Assembly: GCA_965226585.1 (NCBI GenBank)
Contig: OZ245366.1
Coordinates: forward strand, 1,248,001 to 1,312,000
DNA from: Thermodesulfobacteriota bacterium
GTDB taxonomy: Bacteria; Desulfobacterota_D; UBA1144; Nemesobacterales; Mycalebacteriaceae
Length of the DNA: 64,000 bases
Reading direction: 5' to 3'
The notes under the pieces were generated by a model. That model saw only the letters and a program-made list of their open reading frames with translations. It made no database searches and was not told the origin of the DNA. Shown here piece by piece: positions 2,126 to 41,255 of this stretch (positions are counted from its first letter, which is position 1; each line of letters begins with the position of its first letter). The position numbers were made by a program, and so were the translations under genes.

Positions 2126-2531
2126 GTCATTCCTGCGGAAGCAGGAATCCAGTATTAATTAACCAGTTGAATACTGGATTCCGTGTCAGGCACGGAATGA
2201 CGGAAGTGGAGAAGCGTCATTCCGTTGCCTCCTCCGTCATTCCTGCGAAAGCAGGAATCCAGTATTAGTTAGCCAGTTGAATACTGGATTCCGTATCAGG
2301 CACGGAATGACGGAAGTGGAGAAGCGTCATTCCGTTGCCTCCTCCGTCATTCCTGCGAAAGCAGGAATCCAGTATTAATTAACCAGTTGAATACTGGATT
2401 CCGTGTCAAGCACGGAATGACGGGAGTGGAGAAGCGTCATTCCGTTGCCTCCTCCGTCATTCCTGCGAAAGCAGGAATCCAGTATTAATTAACCAGTTGA
2501 ATACTGGATTCCGTGTCAGGCACGGAATGAC
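2126..2531. repeat. Tandem array of four 76-bp composite palindromic elements, 110-bp period (2126-2201, 2236-2311, 2346-2421, 2456-2531)
   Basis: Unit GTCATTCC-TGCGRAAGCA-GGAATCCAGTATT-N13-AATACTGGATTCC-GTRTCARGCAC-GGAATGAC, separated by near-identical 34-bp linkers GGRAGTGGAGAAGCGTCATTCCGTTGCCTCCTCC. Confidence 0.97.
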
Positions 2532-2546
2532 GGAAAGGCAAGTATC

Positions 2547-2597
2547 TTGACCTACCCCCATTCTTGTCCATAGACTAATCTTTAATAGAGTTTGGAG
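2547..2597 (+). promoter_or_regulatory. Putative sigma70 promoter and RBS for the autotransporter cluster
   Basis: TTGACC (2547-2552), 18 bp, TAGACT (2571-2576); GGAG at 2594-2597 before ATG 2606. Confidence 0.55.
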
Positions 2598-2605
2598 CAC
2601 CTAAA

Positions 2606-5600
2606 ATGTCTAAAACCGCAACCACTCTTATTCTGCTTTCTCTCTTACTCGCGCTTGCCGCGCCGCCCTCTTATGCACAAACAGCAACAACCGTTGTAGT
2701 CAACGGCTCTGAAGAGCGGACGGAAGACGACGGAAGCAACACAATAGTGGCGGAAACGGTCAACATTGTGAACGAAGGAAAAGTGTGGGCAAGCGGAGAG
2801 AATAGTTCGGCGATTGCTTCGGGAAATTCGGGAAACGTTACTATTATTTCAGGAGACGGAACGGGAGAGGTTTGGACAACCATTAGCGGCGTTTCAACAG
2901 TGAATGCGACAGGAACGGCGGAAATCAAAAACCTGAAAGTGTGGGCTAACGGTCGCTCAAGCAATGCGGCTAAGGCGGCAACGGCAATAATCAACGGAGC
3001 ACAAGTTTGGACGAACGGAAACTTTTCAAGAGCCGTGTTTGCGACCACGGCGATTGTTCACGGCGCGGACGTTTGGGCTGACGACAGCATTGGAGGCATC
3101 GCTATTTACACACCGCTCGGAACAGCAACCGTAAGTAACAACTCGCAGGTTTGGGCTAACGGCGTTGGAGGCATGGCTATTTTCACACCGGGCGGAACAG
3201 TAACCGTAAGTAACAACTCACAGGTTTGGGCTGACGACATTGGAGGCATCACCATTTACGCACTGGGCGGGACAGTAAATGTAAGCAACTCGCGGGTTTG
3301 GGCTGACGACACTGGAGGCATGGCTATTTTTACAACGGTCGGGACAGCAACCGTAAGTAACAACTCACAGGTTTGGGCTAACGGCGGTGAAGGCAGAGCC
3401 ATTTACGCACCGGGTGGAACAGCAAATGTAAGCAACTCGCGGGTTTGGGCTAATGGATTTGGAAGCACCGCCATTATTGCGAATAACGTAGAGATTGAAG
3501 GTTCTGATGTTTGGACGGAAGAAGATTCCTCCGTTGTTACAATCAGCTCGGGAATTTCAAGCGTGAACAGTTCAAACCTTACTGCTTATAAGGACGGAAA
3601 GGTTTTTGCTCTGGACGCAAGCGAGGGCGACATTGAACTCAACCTTCACAACTCAACAATCGGGTTTAATGGCGCAGGCGGAGAGTTTTTTAAGATTATT
3701 GACACAGAAGACAGCGGAACAGTAAACATTCAATCCCGCAACTCATCTTTCTGGATGGGAAAAGAGAACGCGGCTGTTTTCTCAACCATAGTAGAGGCGA
3801 ACGGAACGGTAACAGACCGGATTGGTGAATTTGAACTGACAGACAGCATTGAAATTTCCGATATGAACAGAGTATGGACAAAAGGCAAAAACGGCGCCGC
3901 CTTCTCTCTTGACTACCAAGGGATGAATGATGTGAAAATCAGCGAATACTTCAACGCTCAACAGGCATGGACGGAAGGGGATAACAGCAACACAATCCGC
4001 ATAAATACGGGAACCGGAGATGTCTCATTCGCCACCACCAGCAAGATATGGGCAAACGGCGCGAACAGTTCGGTGATAAGTGCGGAAACCGGCGGCGGAG
4101 ATGCGAACATTGAAATAGGAGCAGACCATAGTGTCTGGACAAGCGGCGTGAATTCTGTGGCAGTTAAGGCAAAAGCAACCGGAGCGGGAAACGCAAGCGT
4201 CTACACCCGTGCGGGCGCAAGGATTTTCACAAATGCGGCGGATAGTGTGGCGGTTTTTATTCGGGCAGGCGGTTCGGCTGGAAGCAGTGGAGTAGAGTTA
4301 AACATTGGAAATGGCTCGGTTGTGTGCGGTGGTGTGTTTTCAGATTCAAGTGACTGCACACAGGGAGCAAATTCTTACGCCGTGCAGTTTGAGTCTGAGG
4401 AAGGAGATACAAAAATAGTAATCGGCGCGGGCGGCTCTATAGCGGGAGTGGTGTTGCTTTCAGAAAAACGCGATTTTATCTACAACAACGGTTCTTTCAC
4501 GGGTTCGGGAACAACCGGAGACGGTGATGATACGGTTGAAAACAAGGGAACTTTCACCCTCACCGGAGATTTTGACATGGGAGACGGTGAAGACATTTTC
4601 CAAAACAGGGGCACAATAAACGGCACGGGTATGGTCATATACGGTGACGATGACGAAGTTGGTGGGCTTTCTACGCCCGCCCGTCATTCGTCCGCGCCCT
4701 CCCGTCATTCCGCATCCTCCCCTTCCCGTCATTCCGTGCCTGACACGGAATCCAGTATTCAACTGGCTAACCAATACTGGATTCCTGCTTCCGCAGGAAT
4801 GACGGAGGGGGCAGGAATGACGGGGGAGGCAGGAATGACGGGGGAGGGGTCAGCAAGCGGCGACAGCCGTTTCCGCCTTTCCGCCGCCGCGCCGGAACGG
4901 GAGCCGGAACGGGTAACCATCAACTTTGGCGATGGCGATGACCATTTCATAAACGAAGGCACAGTAGTTCTTGGAGGCACGGGCGGCTTTAACGGCTTGG
5001 ACAAAATAACCTTCGGCGTGAACTCAACCCTTGTTGTCTCGGCAGACCCTGAAGAAATGAATGACAAACCGCTCATAGATATTGAAGGCGAGATAACTGC
5101 GGAAGATATTGAGGGTTTTAGAGTCAGGGTTGATGTTCCCGGAACGCACGTAACGGAATACACAATTTTTGAAGCGGATGACTTGCCGGACGGCGAGGAA
5201 AGGCAGGAAGTTGTGGAGCGTCTGAATGCGGAAATAGGCGAAAGGGGAAGTGTTCAGACAGATGGAGACGGCAATCTGTTTTTGACAGCAATATCGTTAA
5301 AAGACGCCAGTTTGGATATTTATGACTCTCTCATCCAATCCGCTTACCGCGCAGACAGGAGTTTTGCCACAAAACTTTCAAGCGGTTGCGGTTACGGATC
5401 TGCGGCGAGTGATGAGATAGACGGAGATTTCTGGACTGGTTGTGTGTGGGCAACATCGGGCGGAAGATACACACGTTATTCTTCAGCAATTAACTATGAT
5501 GAAGATGCCTATACCTTCACCGGAGGCGTTTCAGCTCCGTTCAACAGTATCCTTGTCTCGGTGGCAGGCGGTTATGAAATCTCAACCCTTGATATGGATG

Positions 5601-6271
5601 TGCTGACTGATGAAGGCAGGGCAGACGCAAGCGGAGAAGCGACAAGATTTATGGGCGGTATCTTTGCCTCCACAATAGTGGACAGATACATGGTTGACGG
5701 CAGGTTTCAGTATGTTTCTACGAGTTGGGAGTCAACCCGCTCTGATGGAGATAACCGTTACTCTGCGGATACAAACGCGACAGTATTCGGCGGCGCGCTT
5801 AGCGCGGCAATGCCGTTTTTGTCCGGCAGTTTCGCGTTATTTCCCCGCATAGAGATTGGAGCGTCTTATGTAACAGCGGGCGCGTTTGATGAGACTTCCT
5901 TAACAGACTCAGAAGAGGCAAGGGCTGATGCTTTCAAGGTAAAAGACACAAGTGAGATATTGGTATATGTAAGTCCGTCATTTGAGGCGCGTTCACCTTT
6001 GAGTGAAACGGTAAATATGAGAATTCGCGTGGGGGCGGATATACACATCTTGAACCCTGAAGCCGACCTTGAGGCAACTCTTGATGGCGGTAGCGTTCCC
6101 CGAAGCGGCGGGCAGGACCGGATAATGTTCAACTACGGCGCAGGTTTTGAATACACACCGTATGCTCCTCTGCGGGAATTGAGTGTAAGGATTGACTACG
6201 ATGGCGGAATGAGCGCGAGTTTTGATACTTTCGTGCAAGAGTTCAGAGGCGGCGTTAATTACAGTTTTTAA
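2606..6271 (+). CDS. Autotransporter-like outer-membrane/surface protein 1 (beta-helical passenger plus C-terminal beta-barrel)
   Basis: Sec signal peptide (..LAAPPSYA/Q), G/S/T/N-rich VWANG repeats, GDGDD-x-N-x-G repeats, C-terminal amphipathic strands ending in Phe (GGVNYSF). Confidence 0.85.
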   Translation: MSKTATTLILLSLLLALAAPPSYAQTATTVVVNGSEERTEDDGSNTIVAETVNIVNEGKVWASGENSSAIASGNSGNVTIISGDGTGEVWTTISGVSTVNATGTAEIKNLKVWANGRSSNAAKAATAIINGAQVWTNGNFSRAVFATTAIVHGADVWADDSIGGIAIYTPLGTATVSNNSQVWANGVGGMAIFTPGGTVTVSNNSQVWADDIGGITIYALGGTVNVSNSRVWADDTGGMAIFTTVGTATVSNNSQVWANGGEGRAIYAPGGTANVSNSRVWANGFGSTAIIANNVEIEGSDVWTEEDSSVVTISSGISSVNSSNLTAYKDGKVFALDASEGDIELNLHNSTIGFNGAGGEFFKIIDTEDSGTVNIQSRNSSFWMGKENAAVFSTIVEANGTVTDRIGEFELTDSIEISDMNRVWTKGKNGAAFSLDYQGMNDVKISEYFNAQQAWTEGDNSNTIRINTGTGDVSFATTSKIWANGANSSVISAETGGGDANIEIGADHSVWTSGVNSVAVKAKATGAGNASVYTRAGARIFTNAADSVAVFIRAGGSAGSSGVELNIGNGSVVCGGVFSDSSDCTQGANSYAVQFESEEGDTKIVIGAGGSIAGVVLLSEKRDFIYNNGSFTGSGTTGDGDDTVENKGTFTLTGDFDMGDGEDIFQNRGTINGTGMVIYGDDDEVGGLSTPARHSSAPSRHSASSPSRHSVPDTESSIQLANQYWIPASAGMTEGAGMTGEAGMTGEGSASGDSRFRLSAAAPEREPERVTINFGDGDDHFINEGTVVLGGTGGFNGLDKITFGVNSTLVVSADPEEMNDKPLIDIEGEITAEDIEGFRVRVDVPGTHVTEYTIFEADDLPDGEERQEVVERLNAEIGERGSVQTDGDGNLFLTAISLKDASLDIYDSLIQSAYRADRSFATKLSSGCGYGSAASDEIDGDFWTGCVWATSGGRYTRYSSAINYDEDAYTFTGGVSAPFNSILVSVAGGYEISTLDMDVLTDEGRADASGEATRFMGGIFASTIVDRYMVDGRFQYVSTSWESTRSDGDNRYSADTNATVFGGALSAAMPFLSGSFALFPRIEIGASYVTAGAFDETSLTDSEEARADAFKVKDTSEILVYVSPSFEARSPLSETVNMRIRVGADIHILNPEADLEATLDGGSVPRSGGQDRIMFNYGAGFEYTPYAPLRELSVRIDYDGGMSASFDTFVQEFRGGVNYSF
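3071..3460 (+). repeat. Intragenic 72-78-bp tandem repeats (VWA[ND]..GG.AI...GT..VSN(N)S[QR])
   Basis: Five full units plus the start of a sixth; DNA core GTAAGYAAC(AAC)TCRCRGGTTTGGGCT recurs. Confidence 0.9.
4728..4803. repeat. 76-bp palindromic element inside autotransporter 1, opposite orientation to the array
   Basis: GTCATTCCGTGCCTGACACGGAATCCAGTATTCAACTGGCTAACCAATACTGGATTCCTGCTTCCGCAGGAATGAC, translated RHSVPDTESSIQLANQYWIPASAGMT. Confidence 0.97.
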
Positions 6272-6300
6272 TACCCCTTCTGATTTGCGGAGGCAATGTT

Positions 6301-9300
6301 TTGTCTAAAAAATTATCCTGTATTATTCTGTCTACTCTCTTATTTGCATTTTCCGCGCCGTCATCCTCTTACGCGCAACCAGCAGTCTTCGAAATCTGTG
6401 GCGACAAAAGCATCATACCCAACGCAGTCAATTTAAGATGTATCTCCACAACCGGAAACGCAGTTATTATCCTGTACCTTCCTGGTGCCGAATTTACTGA
6501 AGACAGTGGCAACTTTAGTCTGCTCAACGCCACCGAAGCGGGTGCGGATGCAATCTTTAACACTCACGCTATAAAGATCACAACAACCCAAACAGGCGGA
6601 GATACTATAATTATCGGCGGCGCGGGAAACGCTGCTTTCAGAGCCGATGACGAAGCATTTACCATCAAATCTGGCGGCGGGAATGTTGTTACTATGACAG
6701 CCGGAACGGGTGATGCGAATATAGAAATTTACAATCAATCAAAAGTTCAAATTGAATCAACCGGCGGCGGGAACGGAATTGTCGCTTCAAGCGAAAGCGG
6801 AGATGTGTTTGCGGACTTCTCCAATCAAGGGAGAATCTATTCAGTTCAAGATGACGCGACCGGGTTTATCGCGACAACCAACGGCGGTGAAATCAGCGCG
6901 AATTTTGACGGTTTGTATTCAAGAATACTTATGTACCCCGTAGGCAATCACGGTGGCTCATCAGACGCCAAAGGCGCGACACTCACATCCACAAGCGGCG
7001 ATATAAGTGTTTTGCTTACAAACTCCTCGGCAATCCTCGCCCCGTCTCTGGGAGATTCCCACGGCTTGGAGGCGGTAACGGGAGGGGACGGCGACATAAA
7101 CATACATTTGCAAAATGGAAACGCCTGCATAGTCGGCAGAAACGGGGTTAAAGCCACTACTGTTGACGGAGATATAAACATATACCTGTCGAACGCGCTG
7201 ATTCGCGGCATAGGCACAGGCGGACGGGCTTTGAATGCAACATCTACAAACGGAGATATCACAATCACAGGCGATGGCACGGGCAATATCAACTCTGTTA
7301 GTAACGTCGTCTATCTTGACACCAGCGGCGAGGCAAACATCAGCGGTGTCAGAATCGGGACAGAAGCCGGTACGGCTGTCGAGTCAACGGGAAACCTGAC
7401 TGTTTCAAACGCAGAGATTTGGGCGAACGGCAATTCTAGCGATGCGGTGAAAGCACAGACGGTACATGTATCGGGCGGAATGATCTGGACTAACGGCTTT
7501 TCTAGCGAGGCGGTGAATGCACAGACGGTGTATGTATCGGGCGGAATGATTTGGACTAACGATTTGTTTAGCGATGCGGTGGAAGCACAGACGGTGCATG
7601 TATCGGGTGGAATGATTTGGGCGAACGGCAGCGGTGCATTGTCCTCAGAGACGGTGAATGTGTCGGACGGAATGATCTGGACAACCGGCGATGTTGATGA
7701 TGCGGTGTCCTCAGATACGGTGAATGTGTCGGGCGGAATGATTTGGACAATCGGCGATTCTAGTGATGCCGTGGACGCAGATACGGTAGTGAATGTGTCG
7801 GGCGGAATGATTTGGGCTAACGGCAGATCTAGCGAGGCGGTGAAAGCACAGACGGTGTATGTGTCGGGTGGAATGATTTGGGCTGACGGCTCCCATGGCG
7901 CAGCGGTGAGTGCACAGACGTTAGTAAATGTGTCGGACGGAATGATTTGGGCTGACGGCTCCCGTGGCACAGCGGTGAATGCACAGACGGTAAATGTGTC
8001 GGGTGGAATAATTTGGTCTAACGGCTCGAATAGCCATGCGGTGAGTGCACAGACGGTAAATGTGCCGGGCGGAATAATTTGGTCTAACGGCTCCGGCATA
8101 TTATCCAGTGCTGTGTTTCTCAGAAACATAGAAGGTCCAGCGGAGTTGAAGGTTGGAGGAGGCGCGGTTGTGTGCGGCGGTATACTTTCGGGTTCTGTCT
8201 GCACGGCGGGTGGCTCTGACGTGCATGCCGTGCGTGCTGATGACTTTGCAACCACTGGCGGAACGATAACAACCGAAGACGGCGGCAATATAACGGGCAG
8301 AATTTTGCTTTCAAAACACAACGATGTTTTCTACAACAACGGCTCATTCACCGGACACGGAAACACCAGAGGCGGCGATGACAGGGTTGAAAACAAGGGA
8401 ACCTTCACCCTGACTGGAGACTTTGAAATGGGTGAAGGCGATGACACTTTTGAAAACAAAGACAGTGGAATGGTAGTTTATGGCAACCACTCAATAATCG
8501 CAGAAACCAAGCCTGACCCACCCTCCACGCAACAATCCTCTCCTTCCCGTCATTCCGCATCTTCACCTTCCCGTCATTCCGTGCTTGACACGGAATCCAG
8601 TATTCAACTGGCTAACCAATACTGGATTCCTGCTTCCGCAGGAATGACGGAGGGGGCAGGAATGACGGAGGGGGCAGGAATGACGGAGGGGGCGGGAATG
8701 ACGGAGGGGGCAGGAAACAGCCGTTTCCGCCTATCTTCTGCAGACCCCGCCCCTGCGGACACAACCGCAACCATTAACTTCGGAGATGGCGATGACCATT
8801 TCATAAACAATGGCACAATCGTAATTCAAAACACAGGCGGATTTGCGGGGCTGGAGAAAATAACCTTCGGCGAAAACTCAACCGTAATGGTTACCGCAGA
8901 CTCTACAGAAATGACAACAGACAAACCCCTCATAGAACTTGAAGGCGAGATAACTGCGGAAGATGTTAAAGACTTAAACATAAAATTAGCCAACCCTGAA
9001 AGACATTCAGACGAATTTTCTTTATTCAGTGAAACCGCCTTGCCAGACAGCGAAGCCGAAAGGCAAGAGGTATTGAGCATGATAAGCGGCGGGCTTGGTG
9101 AAGGCAGTAGCGCGGGGATGGATTCAAACGGCAACATATTTGTTGTGCTTGCAAATTCCGTCCACTTTAACTACTTGAGAAACTATGACGCGATGATTCA
9201 ATCCGCTTACCAATCGGATAGTGCCTTTTCAGAAAAACTGCGAGGCAGTTGCTACGGCGGAGAGGCGGAAACACAAGATTTAAGCGGCGGCTGTCTCTGG

Positions 9301-10077
9301 GCAGACGCAGGAAGCCGTCACACACGGCACGACACAAAGGTTAAATACGGAGAAGATGCCTATGTATTTGCCGGAGGTTTGTCCATCCCCGCAGGGCAGT
9401 CCGCCGTGTCAATCGGCGCGGGTTATGAAACATCAGACTTTAACGCCGGAACGGACACAAACGCGGCGGGTGAGCGTTTTATGGCAGGATTATCAGTAGC
9501 AGGTGAGATTTGGAAAAGAATTATCGCAGATGCAAGAACACAGTTTGCAAAAGCGGCATGGGAATCAACATCCGCAAGGGGAGAAGATACCTACTCCGCA
9601 AAGACAAATATAACAACGTGGTCTGCCGCAATAGGGGCGGAAATGCCATTCTTTCCCGGTGGTGTATTTATGGTGGTTCCGCGTCTTGAAGCGGGAGTAG
9701 CCCGTGTATCTGCGGATGGTTTTACAGAAACCGGAGACATGCCTCTTTCTGTTGAAGGATTATCACAAACATATTTGCGTGTAACTCCATCAGTAACGGC
9801 TTATGCTCCCGCAGGGGAAAGTGTAAATATGTGGATGACCGCCGGAGCGGATGCTCACTTAACAGACCCCAAAACAGACTTAAAAGCCGCCTTTTCCCCT
9901 GATGACCCGGTAAATACAAAAGGCGGACTTGAACGCATAAACATAAGATACAGCGCGGGTGCAGAGGTAAGTCCGTTAAAAGGTGTAAGTGTTCGTGTGG
10001 CGTATAGCGGCGGTGTTTCCACTACCTTTGATACGCTTACGCAGACATTTACGGCAAGGTTCGGAGTGGCGTTTTAG
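6301..10077 (+). CDS. Autotransporter-like outer-membrane/surface protein 2
   Basis: TTG start after GGAGG; signal peptide (..FSAPSSSYA/Q); about 22-aa VSGGMIW repeats; C-terminal barrel ending ARFGVAF. Confidence 0.85.
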   Translation: MSKKLSCIILSTLLFAFSAPSSSYAQPAVFEICGDKSIIPNAVNLRCISTTGNAVIILYLPGAEFTEDSGNFSLLNATEAGADAIFNTHAIKITTTQTGGDTIIIGGAGNAAFRADDEAFTIKSGGGNVVTMTAGTGDANIEIYNQSKVQIESTGGGNGIVASSESGDVFADFSNQGRIYSVQDDATGFIATTNGGEISANFDGLYSRILMYPVGNHGGSSDAKGATLTSTSGDISVLLTNSSAILAPSLGDSHGLEAVTGGDGDINIHLQNGNACIVGRNGVKATTVDGDINIYLSNALIRGIGTGGRALNATSTNGDITITGDGTGNINSVSNVVYLDTSGEANISGVRIGTEAGTAVESTGNLTVSNAEIWANGNSSDAVKAQTVHVSGGMIWTNGFSSEAVNAQTVYVSGGMIWTNDLFSDAVEAQTVHVSGGMIWANGSGALSSETVNVSDGMIWTTGDVDDAVSSDTVNVSGGMIWTIGDSSDAVDADTVVNVSGGMIWANGRSSEAVKAQTVYVSGGMIWADGSHGAAVSAQTLVNVSDGMIWADGSRGTAVNAQTVNVSGGIIWSNGSNSHAVSAQTVNVPGGIIWSNGSGILSSAVFLRNIEGPAELKVGGGAVVCGGILSGSVCTAGGSDVHAVRADDFATTGGTITTEDGGNITGRILLSKHNDVFYNNGSFTGHGNTRGGDDRVENKGTFTLTGDFEMGEGDDTFENKDSGMVVYGNHSIIAETKPDPPSTQQSSPSRHSASSPSRHSVLDTESSIQLANQYWIPASAGMTEGAGMTEGAGMTEGAGMTEGAGNSRFRLSSADPAPADTTATINFGDGDDHFINNGTIVIQNTGGFAGLEKITFGENSTVMVTADSTEMTTDKPLIELEGEITAEDVKDLNIKLANPERHSDEFSLFSETALPDSEAERQEVLSMISGGLGEGSSAGMDSNGNIFVVLANSVHFNYLRNYDAMIQSAYQSDSAFSEKLRGSCYGGEAETQDLSGGCLWADAGSRHTRHDTKVKYGEDAYVFAGGLSIPAGQSAVSIGAGYETSDFNAGTDTNAAGERFMAGLSVAGEIWKRIIADARTQFAKAAWESTSARGEDTYSAKTNITTWSAAIGAEMPFFPGGVFMVVPRLEAGVARVSADGFTETGDMPLSVEGLSQTYLRVTPSVTAYAPAGESVNMWMTAGADAHLTDPKTDLKAAFSPDDPVNTKGGLERINIRYSAGAEVSPLKGVSVRVAYSGGVSTTFDTLTQTFTARFGVAF
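7402..8110 (+). repeat. Intragenic ~66-bp tandem repeats (about 11 units, V.VSGGMIW......AV.AQT)
   Basis: Recurring GTGTCGGGCGGAATGATTTGG and GCACAGACGGT cores; units of 20-23 aa. Confidence 0.92.
8573..8709. repeat. 76-bp palindromic element (8573-8648) inside autotransporter 2, with four 18-bp GCRGGAATGACGGAGGGG units (8638-8709) starting in its right end
   Basis: Direct match to the element; translation RHSVLDTESSIQLANQYWIPAS(AGMTEG)x4. Confidence 0.97.
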
Positions 10078-10098
10078 AGACGCGGACGCGCCCACTCC

Positions 10099-10141
10099 GT
10101 CATTCCGTGCCTGACACGGAATCCAGTATTCAACTGGCTAA
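10099..10141. repeat. Half copy of the palindromic element between autotransporters 2 and 3
   Basis: GTCATTCCGTGCCTGACACGGAATCCAGTATTCAACTGGCTAA, then the match stops in AT-rich sequence. Confidence 0.93.
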
Positions 10142-10168
10142 TTTCATATATATTAAAAAAACAAACAA

Positions 10169-13100
10169 ATGTCATTGCCACAAAAAATATTTTTTTTCTC
10201 TCGTTTTTCCTCACCGCTGTAACGCTTACGGCAATTGCACCTGTTCCCGCTTATTCGCAATTGCAATTCAATTATTGCGACAACCCTCCCCCTCCCTCTG
10301 CGACTTGCACCCCAGACAACATATACATCCGATTTTATCACGAACACATAAGAACCGTACTGCTTGAACCTCCGGACAAAACCTCCGTTGATGAAACAAC
10401 CGTCCGTGACGGAACCATCACCATACTCTTTAACAAACAAGGCAGAATTGCATCAAGAGTACCGGATGGCGCGAACGGGATTTTGGCAACAACTGAAAAC
10501 GGCGATATGACCGCAACTTTTGACGGACTGGGTTCGGGAATCTTTATGTATCCAAGTGGCAAACGCGACACCTACTCAAATGCCAGAGGCGCGACATTCA
10601 CAAGCGATAGCGGCAATATAAGTGTTTTACTAACAAACTCTGGGTCAATCCTCGCGCCGTCTCTGGGAGATTCCCACGGCTTTGTGGCTCAAACGGGAGA
10701 GGACGGAGATATAGACATAGTGATGAAAAACGGGAACTCATGCATAGTAGGCAGAAACGGTGTTAAAGCAACTACTGTTGACGGAGATATACGCATAGAA
10801 CTGTCGGGCGCGCTGATTCGCGGTATAGGCACAGGCGGATGGGCTTTGAATGCAACATCGGTAAATGGAGATATCACAATCACAGGCGATGGCACGGGCA
10901 ACATTGCCTCTCTGAATCATAATAGCAGCGGCGTTTATCTTGACACCGATGGTGAGGCAAGCATCAGCAATATTGATATATGGACGCAAGGAGATGGCGG
11001 CACAACAATAGAATCGGTGAGCGGCTTGCGTGTAGTATCGGGAAACATCTGGGCTAACGGCTCGGGCGGCAATACGGTGGAAGCGGGAACTGTGAATGTG
11101 TCGGGCGGAGATATTTTTACGACAGTCCATAACAGCAATGCGGTGGTTGCGCAGGCGGTGAATATATCGGGTGGAGGGATTTGGACACTCAGAGGCGGGT
11201 CATCAGAGAGCATTTTCAGTACCGCCGTGCTTCTCAGAAACGAAGACGGGCAAGCGGAATTAACGGTTGGAGGAAGCGCGATTGTGTGCGGCGGTGCGCT
11301 TTCGGGCATAATCTGCACGGCAAGCGACTATGGCTATGCCGTGCGTGCTGAGACCCCGGCGGCGACCTATGGCACAAAGATAACAACCGAAGGTAGCGGC
11401 AATATAACGGGCAGAATTGGGCTTTCAGACAACAGCGATGTTTTCTACAACAACGGCTCTTTCACCGGACACGGAAACACCGGAGCCGGTGATGACAGGG
11501 TTGAAAACAAGGGAACCTTCACCCTCACCGGAGATTTTGAAATGGGTGAAGGCGATGACAGCTTTGTGAACATAGACGGCGGAATGGTAGTAGGCGATGA
11601 CACTCACACAATAACGCCTACACCGACTACGGGAACACAATCCTCTCCACCCCGTCATTCCGCATCCTCTCCTTCCCGTCATTCCGTGCTTGACACGGAA
11701 TCCAGTATTCAACTGGGTTACCCAATACTGGATTCCTGCTTTCGCAGGAATGACGGAGGGGGCAGGAATGGCGAGAGTGGGGAATGTCATTCCGCGCCTG
11801 CGTCTTCCACCCCGTCAGCAAGCGGCGACAGCCGTTTCCGCCTCTCTTCTGCAGACCCCGCCCCTGCGGACACAACCGCAACCATTAACTTCGGCGATGG
11901 CGATGACCATTTCATAAACAACGGCACAATCGTAATTCAAGATACAGGCGGCTTTGCGGGCTTGGAGAAAATAACCTTCGGTGAAAACTCAACCGTTATG
12001 GTTACCGCAGATTCTACAGAAATGACAACAGACAAACCCCTCATAGAACTTGAAGGCGAGATAACCGCAGAGGATGTTAAAGACTTAAACATAAAATTAG
12101 CCAACCCCGAAAGACATTCAGACGAATTCGCCCTGTTCAGTGAAACCGCCTTGCCTGATAATGAAGCCGAAAGGCAAGAGGTATTGAGCATGATAAGCGG
12201 CGGTCTTGGTGAAGGCAGTAGCGCGGGGGTGGATTCAAACGGCAATATATTTGTTGTGCTTGCCAATTCCGTTCACTTTAACTACCTGAGAAATTATGAC
12301 GCAATGATCCAATCCGCTTACCACTCGGATAGTGCCTTCTCAGAAAAACTGCGCGGCAGTTGTTACGGCGGGGAAGCGGAGACACAACATTTAAGCGGCG
12401 GCTGTCTCTGGGCAGACGCAGGAAGCCGTCATACGAGACACGACACAAAGGTTAAATACGGAGAAGACGCTTATGTATTTGCCGGTGGTTTGTCCATCCC
12501 CGCCGGGCAGTCTGCCGTATCAATCGGCGCAGGTTATGAAACATCAGACTTTAACGCCGGAACTGATACAAACGCGGCAGGTGAAAGGTTTATGGCAGGA
12601 TTATCAGTAGCAGGTGAGATTTGGAAAAGAGTTATCGCGGATGCAAGAACACAGTTTGCAAAAGCGGCATGGGAATCAACATCCGCAAGGGGAGAAGATG
12701 CCTACTCCGCAAAGACAAATATAACAACATGGTCTGCCGCAATAGGGGCGGAGATGCCGTTTTTCCCCGGTGGTGTATTTATGGTGGTTCCGCGTCTTGA
12801 AGCGGGAGTAGCCCGTGTATCTGCGGACAGTTTCATGGAAACCGGCGGCGGAGATATGCCTCTTTCTGTAGGCGGATTATCACAAACATATTTGCGTGTA
12901 ACTCCATCGGTAACGGCTTATGCTCCCGCAGGGGAAAGTGTAAATATGTGGATGACCGCCGGAGCGGACGCTCATTTAACAGACCCCAAGACAGACTTAA
13001 AAGCCACCTTCTCTCCTGATGACCCTGTGAATACAAAAGGCGGTTTTGAACGCATAAACATAAGATACAGCGCGGGTGCTGAGGTAAGTCCGTTAAAAGG

Positions 13101-13194
13101 TGTAAGTGTTCGTGTTGCGTATAGCGGCGGGGTTTCCACTACCTTTGATACGCTTACGCAGACATTTACGGCAAGGTTCGGAGTGGCGTTTTAG
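10169..13194 (+). CDS. Autotransporter-like protein 3. The ATG at 10169 is out of frame at a T8 tract, so it is either phase-OFF or an assembly error (track ORF 10261-13194).
   Basis: The main frame upstream of 10261 encodes a signal-peptide h/c-region (FFLSFFLTAVTLTAIAPVPAYS/Q) with no in-frame ATG. The last ~450 aa are nearly identical to autotransporter 2 and end ARFGVAF. Confidence 0.8.
11678..11754. repeat. 77-bp variant of the palindromic element inside autotransporter 3
   Basis: Loop CAACTGGGTTACCC is 1 bp longer than CAACTGGCTAACC; translation RHSVLDTESSIQLGYPILDSCFRRND. Confidence 0.96.
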
Positions 13195-39170: not shown

Positions 39171-41255
39171 TCAGCCGTCGCCCGCCGACTGTCTAAGTTC
39201 TTCCGCTATATTCGGCGGAAGAGCCTCGTAACGCGCGAACTCCATTGTGAAGGAACCCCTTCCCTCAGTCATCGACCTCAGCGTTGTAGCATATCCGAAC
39301 ACTTCGCCGAGGGGAACATCTGATTTTACCGCCTGCATTCCGCCGCGCATTTCAGTGCTTACGATTCTTCCCCTTCTGGAGTTCAAATCCCCAATAATTC
39401 CGCCGGTAAAGTCTTCCGGCGCGACAACCTCAAGGCTCATCACCGGCTCAAGAATTGACGGAGACGCTTTCGCAAAACCGTCTTTGAAAGCCATTGACCC
39501 CGCGATTTTGAACGCTATCTCGGAAGAGTCAACCTCGTGGAAAGAGCCGTCATAAAGCGTAACGCGCACGTCAACAACCGGATAGCCGGAAATAACTCCG
39601 GTCTCTATAACCTCTTTCATTCCCTTCTGAACGGCGGGGATGTATTCCCTCGGTATCACTCCGCCTTTTATCTTGTCAATAAACTCAAAACCGCCGCCTC
39701 TCTCAAGCGGCTCCATCTGTATCTTCACGTGCCCGTACTGCCCGCGCCCGCCCGTTTGCCTGATGAATTTGGCTTCAACATCCGAGGAACCCATTATGGT
39801 CTCCCTGTACGCGACCTGCGGCTTTCCAACATTCGCATCCACGCCGAACTCCCTTGAAAGCCTGTCAACAATAACGTCAAGGTGAAGTTCGCCCATTCCC
39901 GATATAACAGTCTGCCCGGTCTCCTCGTCGCTTCTGACCCTGAATGAAGGGTCTTCAAGGGCGAGGCGCGAAAGGGAAACCGCGAGTTTTTCCTGATCGG
40001 GTTTGGATTTCGGCTCAATCGCGATAGATATGACGGGGTCTGAAATATTGAGACTTTCAAGCACTATGGGGTTTGCCTGATCGCAAAGCGTGTCGCCGGT
40101 TATGGAGATTTTAAGCCCAACGGCGGCAACTATTCCGCCCGCCCCTATCTCTTTGATTTCCTCTCTCTTGTTGGCGTGCATTCTCACAAGCCGCCCTATT
40201 TTTTCTTTCTTGCCCTTGGTTGAGTTCAAAACCGTACTGCCGGAAACCATCTTCCCGGAATACACCCTCACGTATGTAAGTTGTCCCACAAAGGGGTCGT
40301 TCATAATCTTAAAAGCCAGCCCTGAAAAAGGAGCCTCCGTGTCTGAGGGTCTTGAATCCTCTTCGCCGTCATCGTTTAACCCCGGTATCGGGGGAAGGTC
40401 AACCGGAGAGGGAAGGTAGTCCACAACGGCGTCAAGAAGAAGCTGAACGCCCTTGTTTTTGAACGCCGAACCGCAGAACACCGGAATTATGTTAAGGGCG
40501 ATGGTCTGCTCTCTCACAACTTTTTTAACGATGGCGGTGTCCACATCTTCGTCGCTCAGGTACGCCTCCATTATGGAGTCGTCAAAATCGGCAATCGCTT
40601 CAAGCAGTTGTTTGCGCCCCGCCGAAAAATCTTCCCGCGACTCTTCGGGGATGTCTTTCTCTTCAAACTTCGCCCCCAGAGATTCTCCGTCCCACACCAC
40701 AAGTTTTTGCGAAACAAGGTCGATTATGCCCTTAAAGTCTTCGCCCTCAAACCAGGGTATGTGCATATAAACGGGGCGGGCGTTCAGCCGCTCCTCAATC
40801 TGTTTGACAACCTTGAAAAAGTCCGCGCCGATTCTGTCCATCTTGTTGACAAAGCACATTCTCGGAACGCCGTAGCGGTCTGCCTGCCGCCAAACGGTTT
40901 CGGTTTGCGGCTCAACTCCGCCAACGCAGTCAAACACAACAACGGCTCCGTCAAGAACTTTGAGCGAACGCTCAACCTCTATCGTGAAATCAACGTGTCC
41001 GGGAGTGTCAACGATGTTTATCCTGTGGTCGTCCCAGAAGCAGGTTGTTGTTGCCGAAGTGATGGTTATTCCGCGCTCCCTTTCCTGGTCCATCCAGTCC
41101 ATCGTGGCGGTTCCTTCGTGAACCTCTCCTATTTTGTAGGTAAGCCCGGTGTAGAAAAGTATGCGTTCGGTGGTTGTGGTTTTACCCGCGTCTATGTGCG
41201 CCACAATCCCTATATTGCGCACCTTGTCCATGGGGACTTTTATTTCTTCTGCCAT
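39171..41255 (-). CDS. fusA: Elongation factor G
   Basis: [47 protein letters not shown]. Confidence 0.99.

Follow-up and report, generated by a model that had tools for sequence, protein, structure and literature searches.

Within a 64,000-nt stretch of the genome of a Thermodesulfobacteriota bacterium (the window, to which plain positions refer; positions beginning with G000:C1 and bare gene numbers are those of the genome) we analyzed a hairpin-pair element that is found upstream of three tandem autotransporter genes and also in frame inside each of them. Four elements on the plus strand with a period of 110 nt (2126-2201, 2236-2311, 2346-2421 and 2456-2531, units running GTCATTCC...GGAATGAC) form an array between a PEP-utiliser/GAF gene and autotransporter 1. 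Directly behind the array lies a sigma-70-like promoter match (2547..2576, plus strand, TTGACC-18-TAGACT, 9/12), which is a consensus match alone, and this element-promoter junction recurs before three other paralogs. Then follow, all on the plus strand, autotransporter 1 (2606..6271, 1221 aa, barrel clade A; assigned by homology and a low-confidence model), autotransporter 2 (6301..10077, 1258 aa, barrel clade B) and autotransporter 3 (10169..13194, barrel clade B), the last having its start codon and signal peptide in another frame than its long open reading frame (ORF). The coding copies lie on the minus strand and come with terminal repeats. In gene 1 the element at 4728-4803 (4692..4842 with its repeats) encodes SRHSVPDTESSIQLANQYWIPASAGMTEG; upstream of it one end is repeated in units of 24 and 21 nt, and downstream the other end is repeated twice in units of 18 nt. 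Gene 2 holds the element at 8573-8648 together with four terminal repeats, one of 24 nt and three of 18 nt (8549..8705), and gene 3 has a variant one base longer at 11678-11754 (11654..11797), which agrees over 79 nt without a difference with an intergenic copy at genome position 39650. A part copy of 46 nt, comprising one hairpin and the central spacer, is located on the minus strand between genes 2 and 3 (10098..10143). A preliminary description of the window had reported four upstream copies, three coding copies and one half copy, with the coding copies in one homologous site, opposite to the array and leaving the ORFs open, and had seen none in the rest of the window; we could confirm all of this, no copy being present within 11755-64000. 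The peptide SSIQLANQYWIPASAGMTEG named there is indeed encoded by genes 1 and 2, whereas gene 3 with its extra base reads ...SSIQLGYPILDSCFRRNDGG... instead.

The element consists of two outward-facing hairpins around a 13-nt variable centre, and each hairpin has a CGTC tag, an 8-bp stem, a 4- or 5-nt loop and a CCAGTATT tail. Of the full-length window copies, the five that were folded gave z values of -6.2 to -7.5 and the part copy gave -4.8, none of 200 shuffles being as good in each case, and all six stretches show the hairpin fold of an NTS/SRM repeat. With the 28-nt NTS consensus and its oriented 5' tag six window matches at 2-3 mismatches were found against none expected; these are the left hairpin, the right hairpin with its 5-nt loop being unmatched, and as the filter in PMC11893778 allowed one mismatch the sequence here is a variant. 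The CGTC or TGTC tag, the 8-9-bp stem starting AT, the 4-5-nt loop, the CCA tail and the head-to-head dimer by which CGTC-tagged REPs are defined (Di Nocera et al. 2013, PMC3733652) are likewise all present, and the element resembles CGTC-1 and CGTC-2 in these respects. Unlike CGTC-REP dimers, it joins a 4-nt-loop to a 5-nt-loop hairpin. CGTC-1 has been equated with Neisseria dRS3 and Rickettsia RPE-6 (PMC3733652). The kinship with dRS3 and CGTC-REPs that had been proposed earlier holds, the left hairpin being 2-3 mismatches away from the published NTS consensus.

In the 1.48-Mb genome we identified 160 copies, 141 of them at least 70 nt long, in 67 clusters. In two arrays a gene for a 96-aa GIY-YIG protein is located exactly between element bases 1-39 and 38-77, and the 77-mer is therefore the cassette without its gene. 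Both genes are intact and their products identical (PF01541, 58.3 bits), and the protein shows 56.5% identity over 96% of its length to an unannotated Neisseria gonorrhoeae ORF, which is surrounded by 8 NTS matches in 1076 nt and which we take to be ssnA; an NCBIfam scan with five queries, the nuclease among them, gave no match. NTS/SRM hairpins are known to be paired with the single-strand nuclease SsnA (Chenal et al. 2025, PMC11893778). Judged from sequence, these data show the element to be a head-to-head pair of NTS/SRM (CGTC-REP) hairpins and the empty form of an ssnA nuclease cassette. On the 5' side of each hairpin the bases vary and in many copies include partial duplications, and the element ends tend to duplicate as short units. 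Regarding the mobilisers suggested in the preliminary description, a GIY-YIG gene flanked by the element was thus found, RAYT was rejected and IS110/Piv was not found: the only PF01797 (Y1 transposase) gene has no hairpin within its 3249-nt locus, and no IS110/Piv recombinase was found in the 94.6% complete genome, tyrosine and serine recombinases not having been searched.

The three autotransporters belong to a family of 29 genes in this genome, which cover 149 kb or 10% of it. A Pfam search with the three full-length proteins gave nothing; PF03797 is above the cut-off in gene 2 (55.8 bits, cut-off 26) and gene 3 (49.9 bits), and gene 1, being without a Pfam match of its own, is 39% identical to gene 2 in the barrel region. 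In the model of gene 1 (mean pLDDT 57, TM-scores low) the end of the passenger is predicted to be rich in beta structure, and there is a long helix and a barrel of about 12 strands; the folds that match best are those of EstA, AaaA, BrkA and EspP. A signal peptide was seen by eye, without a predictor, in genes 1 and 2. With type Va autotransporters (EstA, BrkA, EspP, NalP) the family shares a putative signal peptide, the beta-rich passenger, the helix and a C-terminal barrel ending in Phe; in contrast to these examples it is lineage-specific, with 29 genes here. Only 19 matches were found among 1.84 billion representatives, mostly from this genome, and one query found no member in five same-genus genomes. 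Close outside members are only the proteins P0010, P0011 and P0012, the outside members being labelled Thermodesulfobacteriota, and a metagenome scan for orthologs gave three weak matches of 35%, which were not used. One sequencing run containing the stretch is a sponge metagenome.

Comparison at the linker where the element resides was possible for 24 paralogs, five of the 29 without the linker anchor being left out; none of these five has an internal copy. A full element is present in 13 of the 24 (in one of them twice), a 33-nt half in one and no element in ten, and one of the ten element-free paralogs contains a 21-nt fragment in the opposite orientation. The site thus occurs in empty, half, full and double states, and all 14 full coding copies are antisense and at this one site. 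No long gene outside the family carries a full internal copy, as the 20 other overlaps are with ORFs of 100-183 aa that are made by the arrays themselves or, once, by an upstream extension of the nuclease ORF. The periods of the terminal repeats are multiples of three in 29 of 29 cases within genes (18, 21 or 24 nt) compared with 49 of 150 between genes, where the 29 share ancestry and represent perhaps four or five independent units. In the third coding copy of the window the shifted frame is restored by the spacer behind the element. The frame-keeping periods in genes therefore indicate that the coding element is under selection for an open frame, and the peptide encoded by it is presumably translated. 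As in RPE-like elements, the insertion is in frame, the ORF stays open and empty alleles exist in relatives: outside this genome a half hairpin is found at the homologous site in P0010 (clade-B linker) and P0012 (clade-A linker), P0011 is empty, and sequencing run X5 has a contig joint matching the P0011-type empty form. In the gene 1 model the element corresponds to residues 149-174 and lies within a segment of pLDDT <50 (123-209) between confident beta regions. The site is thus predicted to be a disordered loop about 130 residues before the translocator helix, so that the common homologous site of the preliminary description stands while its position is not the passenger-barrel junction itself. 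Furthermore, genes 1258261 and 686839 have a 78-nt variant of the element that matches the intergenic copy at 39650 (genome position) perfectly over 79 nt, and coding and intergenic copies have therefore likely exchanged sequence.

All 29 family genes have an element inside or at most 500 nt away, and among the gaps between genes 26 of the 41 beside family genes hold an element compared with 26 of 1131 others, which supports genome-wide the link to surface genes claimed earlier. These counts rest on a crude ORF list, and the P value of 2e-28 is not taken as evidence of independent insertions; the enrichment overstates independence because element-promoter and stop-element junctions common to paralogs were duplicated with the genes. 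A half element of 33-36 nt overlaps the stop codon of five family genes (G000:C1:690231, 780650, 832940, 1189446 and 1328689), and run X5 contains a half-element/stop junction at window 13193 that is absent from this assembly. A 954-aa protein (G000:C1:833076-835940), which we take to be isoleucyl-tRNA-synthetase-like, has the element-encoded C-terminal end VIPAEAGIQY. A two-gene unit of element, promoter, clade A or C gene, clade B gene and element recurs at G000:C1:24223-33305, 441444-447740 and 771583-781146 and at window 2126-10143, and the arrays may be the ends of such duplicated cassettes. At G000:C1:686542-686808 a paralog is reduced to its promoter and the last 90 barrel codons upstream of an intact clade-B gene; this remnant is the collapsed first gene of the usual cassette. 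Elsewhere a 3197-aa YadA-head protein (G000:C1:46738-56331) is flanked by a 9-copy array and a single copy, and in a scan of 23 genes other clusters adjoined a porin, an efflux channel and glycosyltransferases and also housekeeping genes such as those for PNPase, a release factor and NAD kinase.

To follow the path of the element through the family we compared it with the barrels. Between clades A and B the barrels share about 39% protein identity whereas the elements are 92-100% identical, and in a quick barrel tree the bearers make up 7/8, 4/5, 1/3 and 1/5 of the genes in four subclades with support values of 96-100. As near-identical elements occur in four barrel subclades together with empty sisters, inheritance by plain duplication is excluded. 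After removal of the element, highly identical tracts across clades are found in a fraction of 0.30-0.46 of the bearer-bearer pairs at 0 to +125 nt from the anchor (0.46 at +75) and drop to at most 0.06 beyond about 150 nt, and other pairs show 0.00-0.05. A tract shared with clade B is present in four of six full bearers outside clade B and in none of nine empty genes outside it. These tracts, which peak beside the element, argue that the element passed from clade to clade within patches a few hundred bases long, and gene-to-gene conversion would be its route. The peak does not show that the element caused the conversion, because any marker moved by conversion gives such a pattern.

Pairwise shared tracts end at many positions between -750 and +420 nt, and the switches between donors were mapped with a donor-painting model (custom scripts, one assembly, reciprocal events counted twice). 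Bearers show 3.9 switches per kb in the element and 4.5 just upstream; on the downstream side the rate is 3.2-5.4 within the first 400 nt, and the barrel has 1.7-2.2. The element receives 10 of the 40 switches in the zone from -100 to +450, of which it makes up 28%, and 11 of 47 and 8 of 29 at two other penalties. Of 78 pairs 11 are discordant at the element, compared with 13 at -90 nt, 20 at +60 nt and 18 at +180 nt. Breakpoints are thus not confined to the repeat as in site-specific shuffling; the switches spread over about 700 nt and the element gets its share by length alone. Empty genes change partner in the same zone, namely 1340783/1359842 at +171, 830181 at +48 to +57 and 1318889 at 0 to +30. 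Contigs of four sequencing runs were short, breaking at repeats with none spanning the stretch, and most of their element joints were indistinguishable from those of other paralogs. Taken together, 13 family genes from four barrel subclades are seen to carry the element at one site, and the alignments show mosaic paralogs with breakpoints over about 700 nt.

We therefore consider it probable, on these comparisons, that an inverted NTS-type pair entered a tolerant loop once or twice and was spread by short conversion patches, acting as a passive island of homology. A hairpin would have landed in the tolerant autotransporter loop first as a 33-nt half, which would have been turned into a full pair by exchange with the genome-wide pool, and the full pair would then have travelled among the paralogs within conversion patches. 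The order from the empty site over one 33-nt hairpin to the full pair is suggested by the states observed, and RecA-type homology as the driver, like any role of SsnA in making the copies, is our inference. Once in place, the element would provide 100-250 nt of near-identical sequence among divergent genes and widen a recombination zone that already existed. Where the element is present this zone indeed appears to reach further upstream.

Several points weigh against this view. All comparisons are made between paralogs of one assembly and three outside proteins, and the cross-clade peak may rest on 2-3 events, as events are few and non-independent with reciprocal pairs counted twice. The low pLDDT of the supposed loop may reflect a shallow alignment of 15 rows. 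Between -250 and +45 there are 19 switches in bearers and none in empty genes, which an active role of the element could explain; this contrast is weak because half of the stretch is without a close donor in empty genes. A hint of drive, finally, is that the element is present in 13 of the 24 paralogs that could be aligned and that all the state changes seen can be read as gains.

Such a drive could resemble homing, with SsnA cutting single-stranded DNA just outside the hairpins and thereby starting conversion, so that 100-200 nt of linker would be co-converted and the repertoire diversified. We regard this as rather unlikely, even if the genome has two intact ssnA genes, the shared tracts peak beside the element, a rare 78-nt variant is common to coding and intergenic copies and donor switches upstream of +45 are found in bearers and not in empty genes. 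ComEC and DprA genes are also present, though 10-11 of 14 control genomes have them as well. Under classical homing a nuclease cutting the element-bearing allele favours loss of the element and not its gain, and there is no excess of switches at the element. SsnA does cut a few bases 5' of NTS, where the variable and duplicated flanks lie here, and yet Neisseria SsnA lowers the integration of NTS-bearing DNA (PMC11893778). Moreover, in five congeners the load of repeats does not follow the nuclease: G001 has ssnA and few dispersed matches, and G002, G004 and G005 have repeats with no ssnA found by the query used. The wider scheme, in which a domesticated nuclease and its hairpin diversify a 150-kb repertoire by homing from linker to linker while the arrays help to duplicate promoter-gene cassettes, appears doubtful to the same extent.

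Repeated independent insertion into one preferred target in several paralogs is distinctly improbable. It would account for the four or five different left flanks at the site and for the coding copies of two genes that match an intergenic variant better than other coding copies. All 14 copies have, in contrast, one orientation and frame, a single type of hairpin loop and two variants of the centre account for 12 of them, and the coding copies have their terminal repeats of 24 and 18 nt in common. Of 124 intergenic copies, moreover, just 44 have a length that would suit the coding frame and would stay open in it.

Still less credit is due to the reading of the preliminary description that the element is a fixed hinge, at which crossovers exchange passengers on a shared translocator. 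The mosaicism of passenger and translocator is real: four left-flank and four right-flank types, sorted by eye, occur in 8 combinations among 13 bearers, which requires at least one exchange within the element block, the 10 painted switches mentioned above map to the element, and genes 445149 and 1189475 share 99.2% identity over 785 nt, as far as the end of the element, while their barrels differ. With the element removed, however, this last tract continues to about +340, the discordance is higher on either side than on the element, empty genes change partner too, and neither an IS110/Piv recombinase nor a hairpin in the 3.2-kb locus of the Y1 gene was found. The hinge is thus, by the spread of the breakpoints, largely refuted. 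One ancestral insertion followed by whole-gene duplication and losses, to which the preliminary description had pointed as the simpler alternative and which would fit the one site, the one orientation and the element in 7 of 8 clade-B genes, is the least probable of all: it is insufficient for near-identical elements in diverged barrels with bearers scattered among empty sisters, and the barrel tree refutes it as a pure scheme unless barrels rather than linkers were swapped, which would again be recombination.

Hairpins are only weakly linked to autotransporters in the congeners. In G005 they lie behind three paralogs of a different autotransporter family, and in G001 13 of 14 pattern matches surround ssnA with none near its 7 autotransporter matches. 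These 13 hairpins lie around two tandem ssnA cassettes (G001:C1:1388717-1390698) with only one elsewhere, and G001 could possibly represent a state before expansion. Some congeners have autotransporter ORFs of more than 10,000 aa. In-frame copies were found neither in nine barrel-centred loci of about 3.7 kb nor in the loci L075, L076 and L085, the whole autotransporter genes of the congeners lying mostly outside those loci.

Compared with known systems, the 96-aa single-domain GIY-YIG gene between inverted hairpins, the clusters beside membrane-protein genes and the symbiont-type host resemble NTS/SsnA. Different from it, the hairpins here are nearly all in a fixed 77-nt pair, which corresponds to the cassette minus its gene, and 14 of the 141 full copies are intragenic, all at one site of one family; in N. 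meningitidis 2% of the NTS are intragenic (PMC11893778). Intragenic CGTC dimers encode 20-30 residues, which are thought to be tolerated in linkers or loops, and the published copies are distributed across unrelated proteins unlike the one homologous site in a paralog family found here, even if the intragenic list of that paper could include autotransporter cases (PMC3733652). Arrays of dRS3/NIME flank surface-protein genes with varying unit number and have been proposed to promote recombination, either passively or via a specific recombinase (Bentley et al. 2007, PMC1797815). The arrays around surface-protein genes are shared with our genome; NIME are intergenic and act on orthologs between strains, whereas the repeat here is also inside genes with exchange among paralogs and no Piv/IS110 found. 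Hairpin arrays by surface genes, the hairpin-nuclease pair and in-frame palindromes (PMC3733652; PMC10969869) are each already published. A paper describing such an element at a single fixed site throughout a family of paralogs was not found, nor, among the matches listed, a follow-up on Ssn, subscription journals being outside the search.

With 24 alignable paralogs, about half of them with a hairpin at one site, and two intact nuclease genes, one genome offers a natural experiment. It bears on a question raised since the dRS3 work, namely if hairpins promote recombination of surface genes and if a nuclease is involved, and a first answer from these alignments would be that the hairpin extends homology and is not a hotspot. 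The selfish repeat appears to add 30-80 residues to predicted secreted proteins, with clear signs of selection for the reading frame. If it were true that the nuclease drives conversion, this would be the first role of the Ssn family in antigen-type variation.

Gene 3 itself may be subject to switching. Its ATG (10169) meets a stop after 17 codons and a stretch resembling a signal peptide goes on in the long ORF's frame, the frame shift being located at a T8 run (10190-10197). With its start out of frame in this assembly the gene is therefore predicted to yield no secreted protein. In sequencing run X4, which comes from another study, the T stretch is one base longer at full depth while X1 and X2 match the window, and slippage-type phase variation at the T8 run is therefore likely. 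In the paralog 1189475-1192759 the start codon is likewise out of frame with the signal peptide and a C-rich run adjoins it (G000:C1:1192759-1193000). Apart from these genes, an Rfam scan of the window gave two tRNAs and nothing else. The GAF-domain PEP-utiliser upstream of the array (2-2110) is PtsP-like by its domain order, and downstream of gene 3 are located what we presume, from their translations, to be smpB-like and Mla/MCE-type ABC genes.

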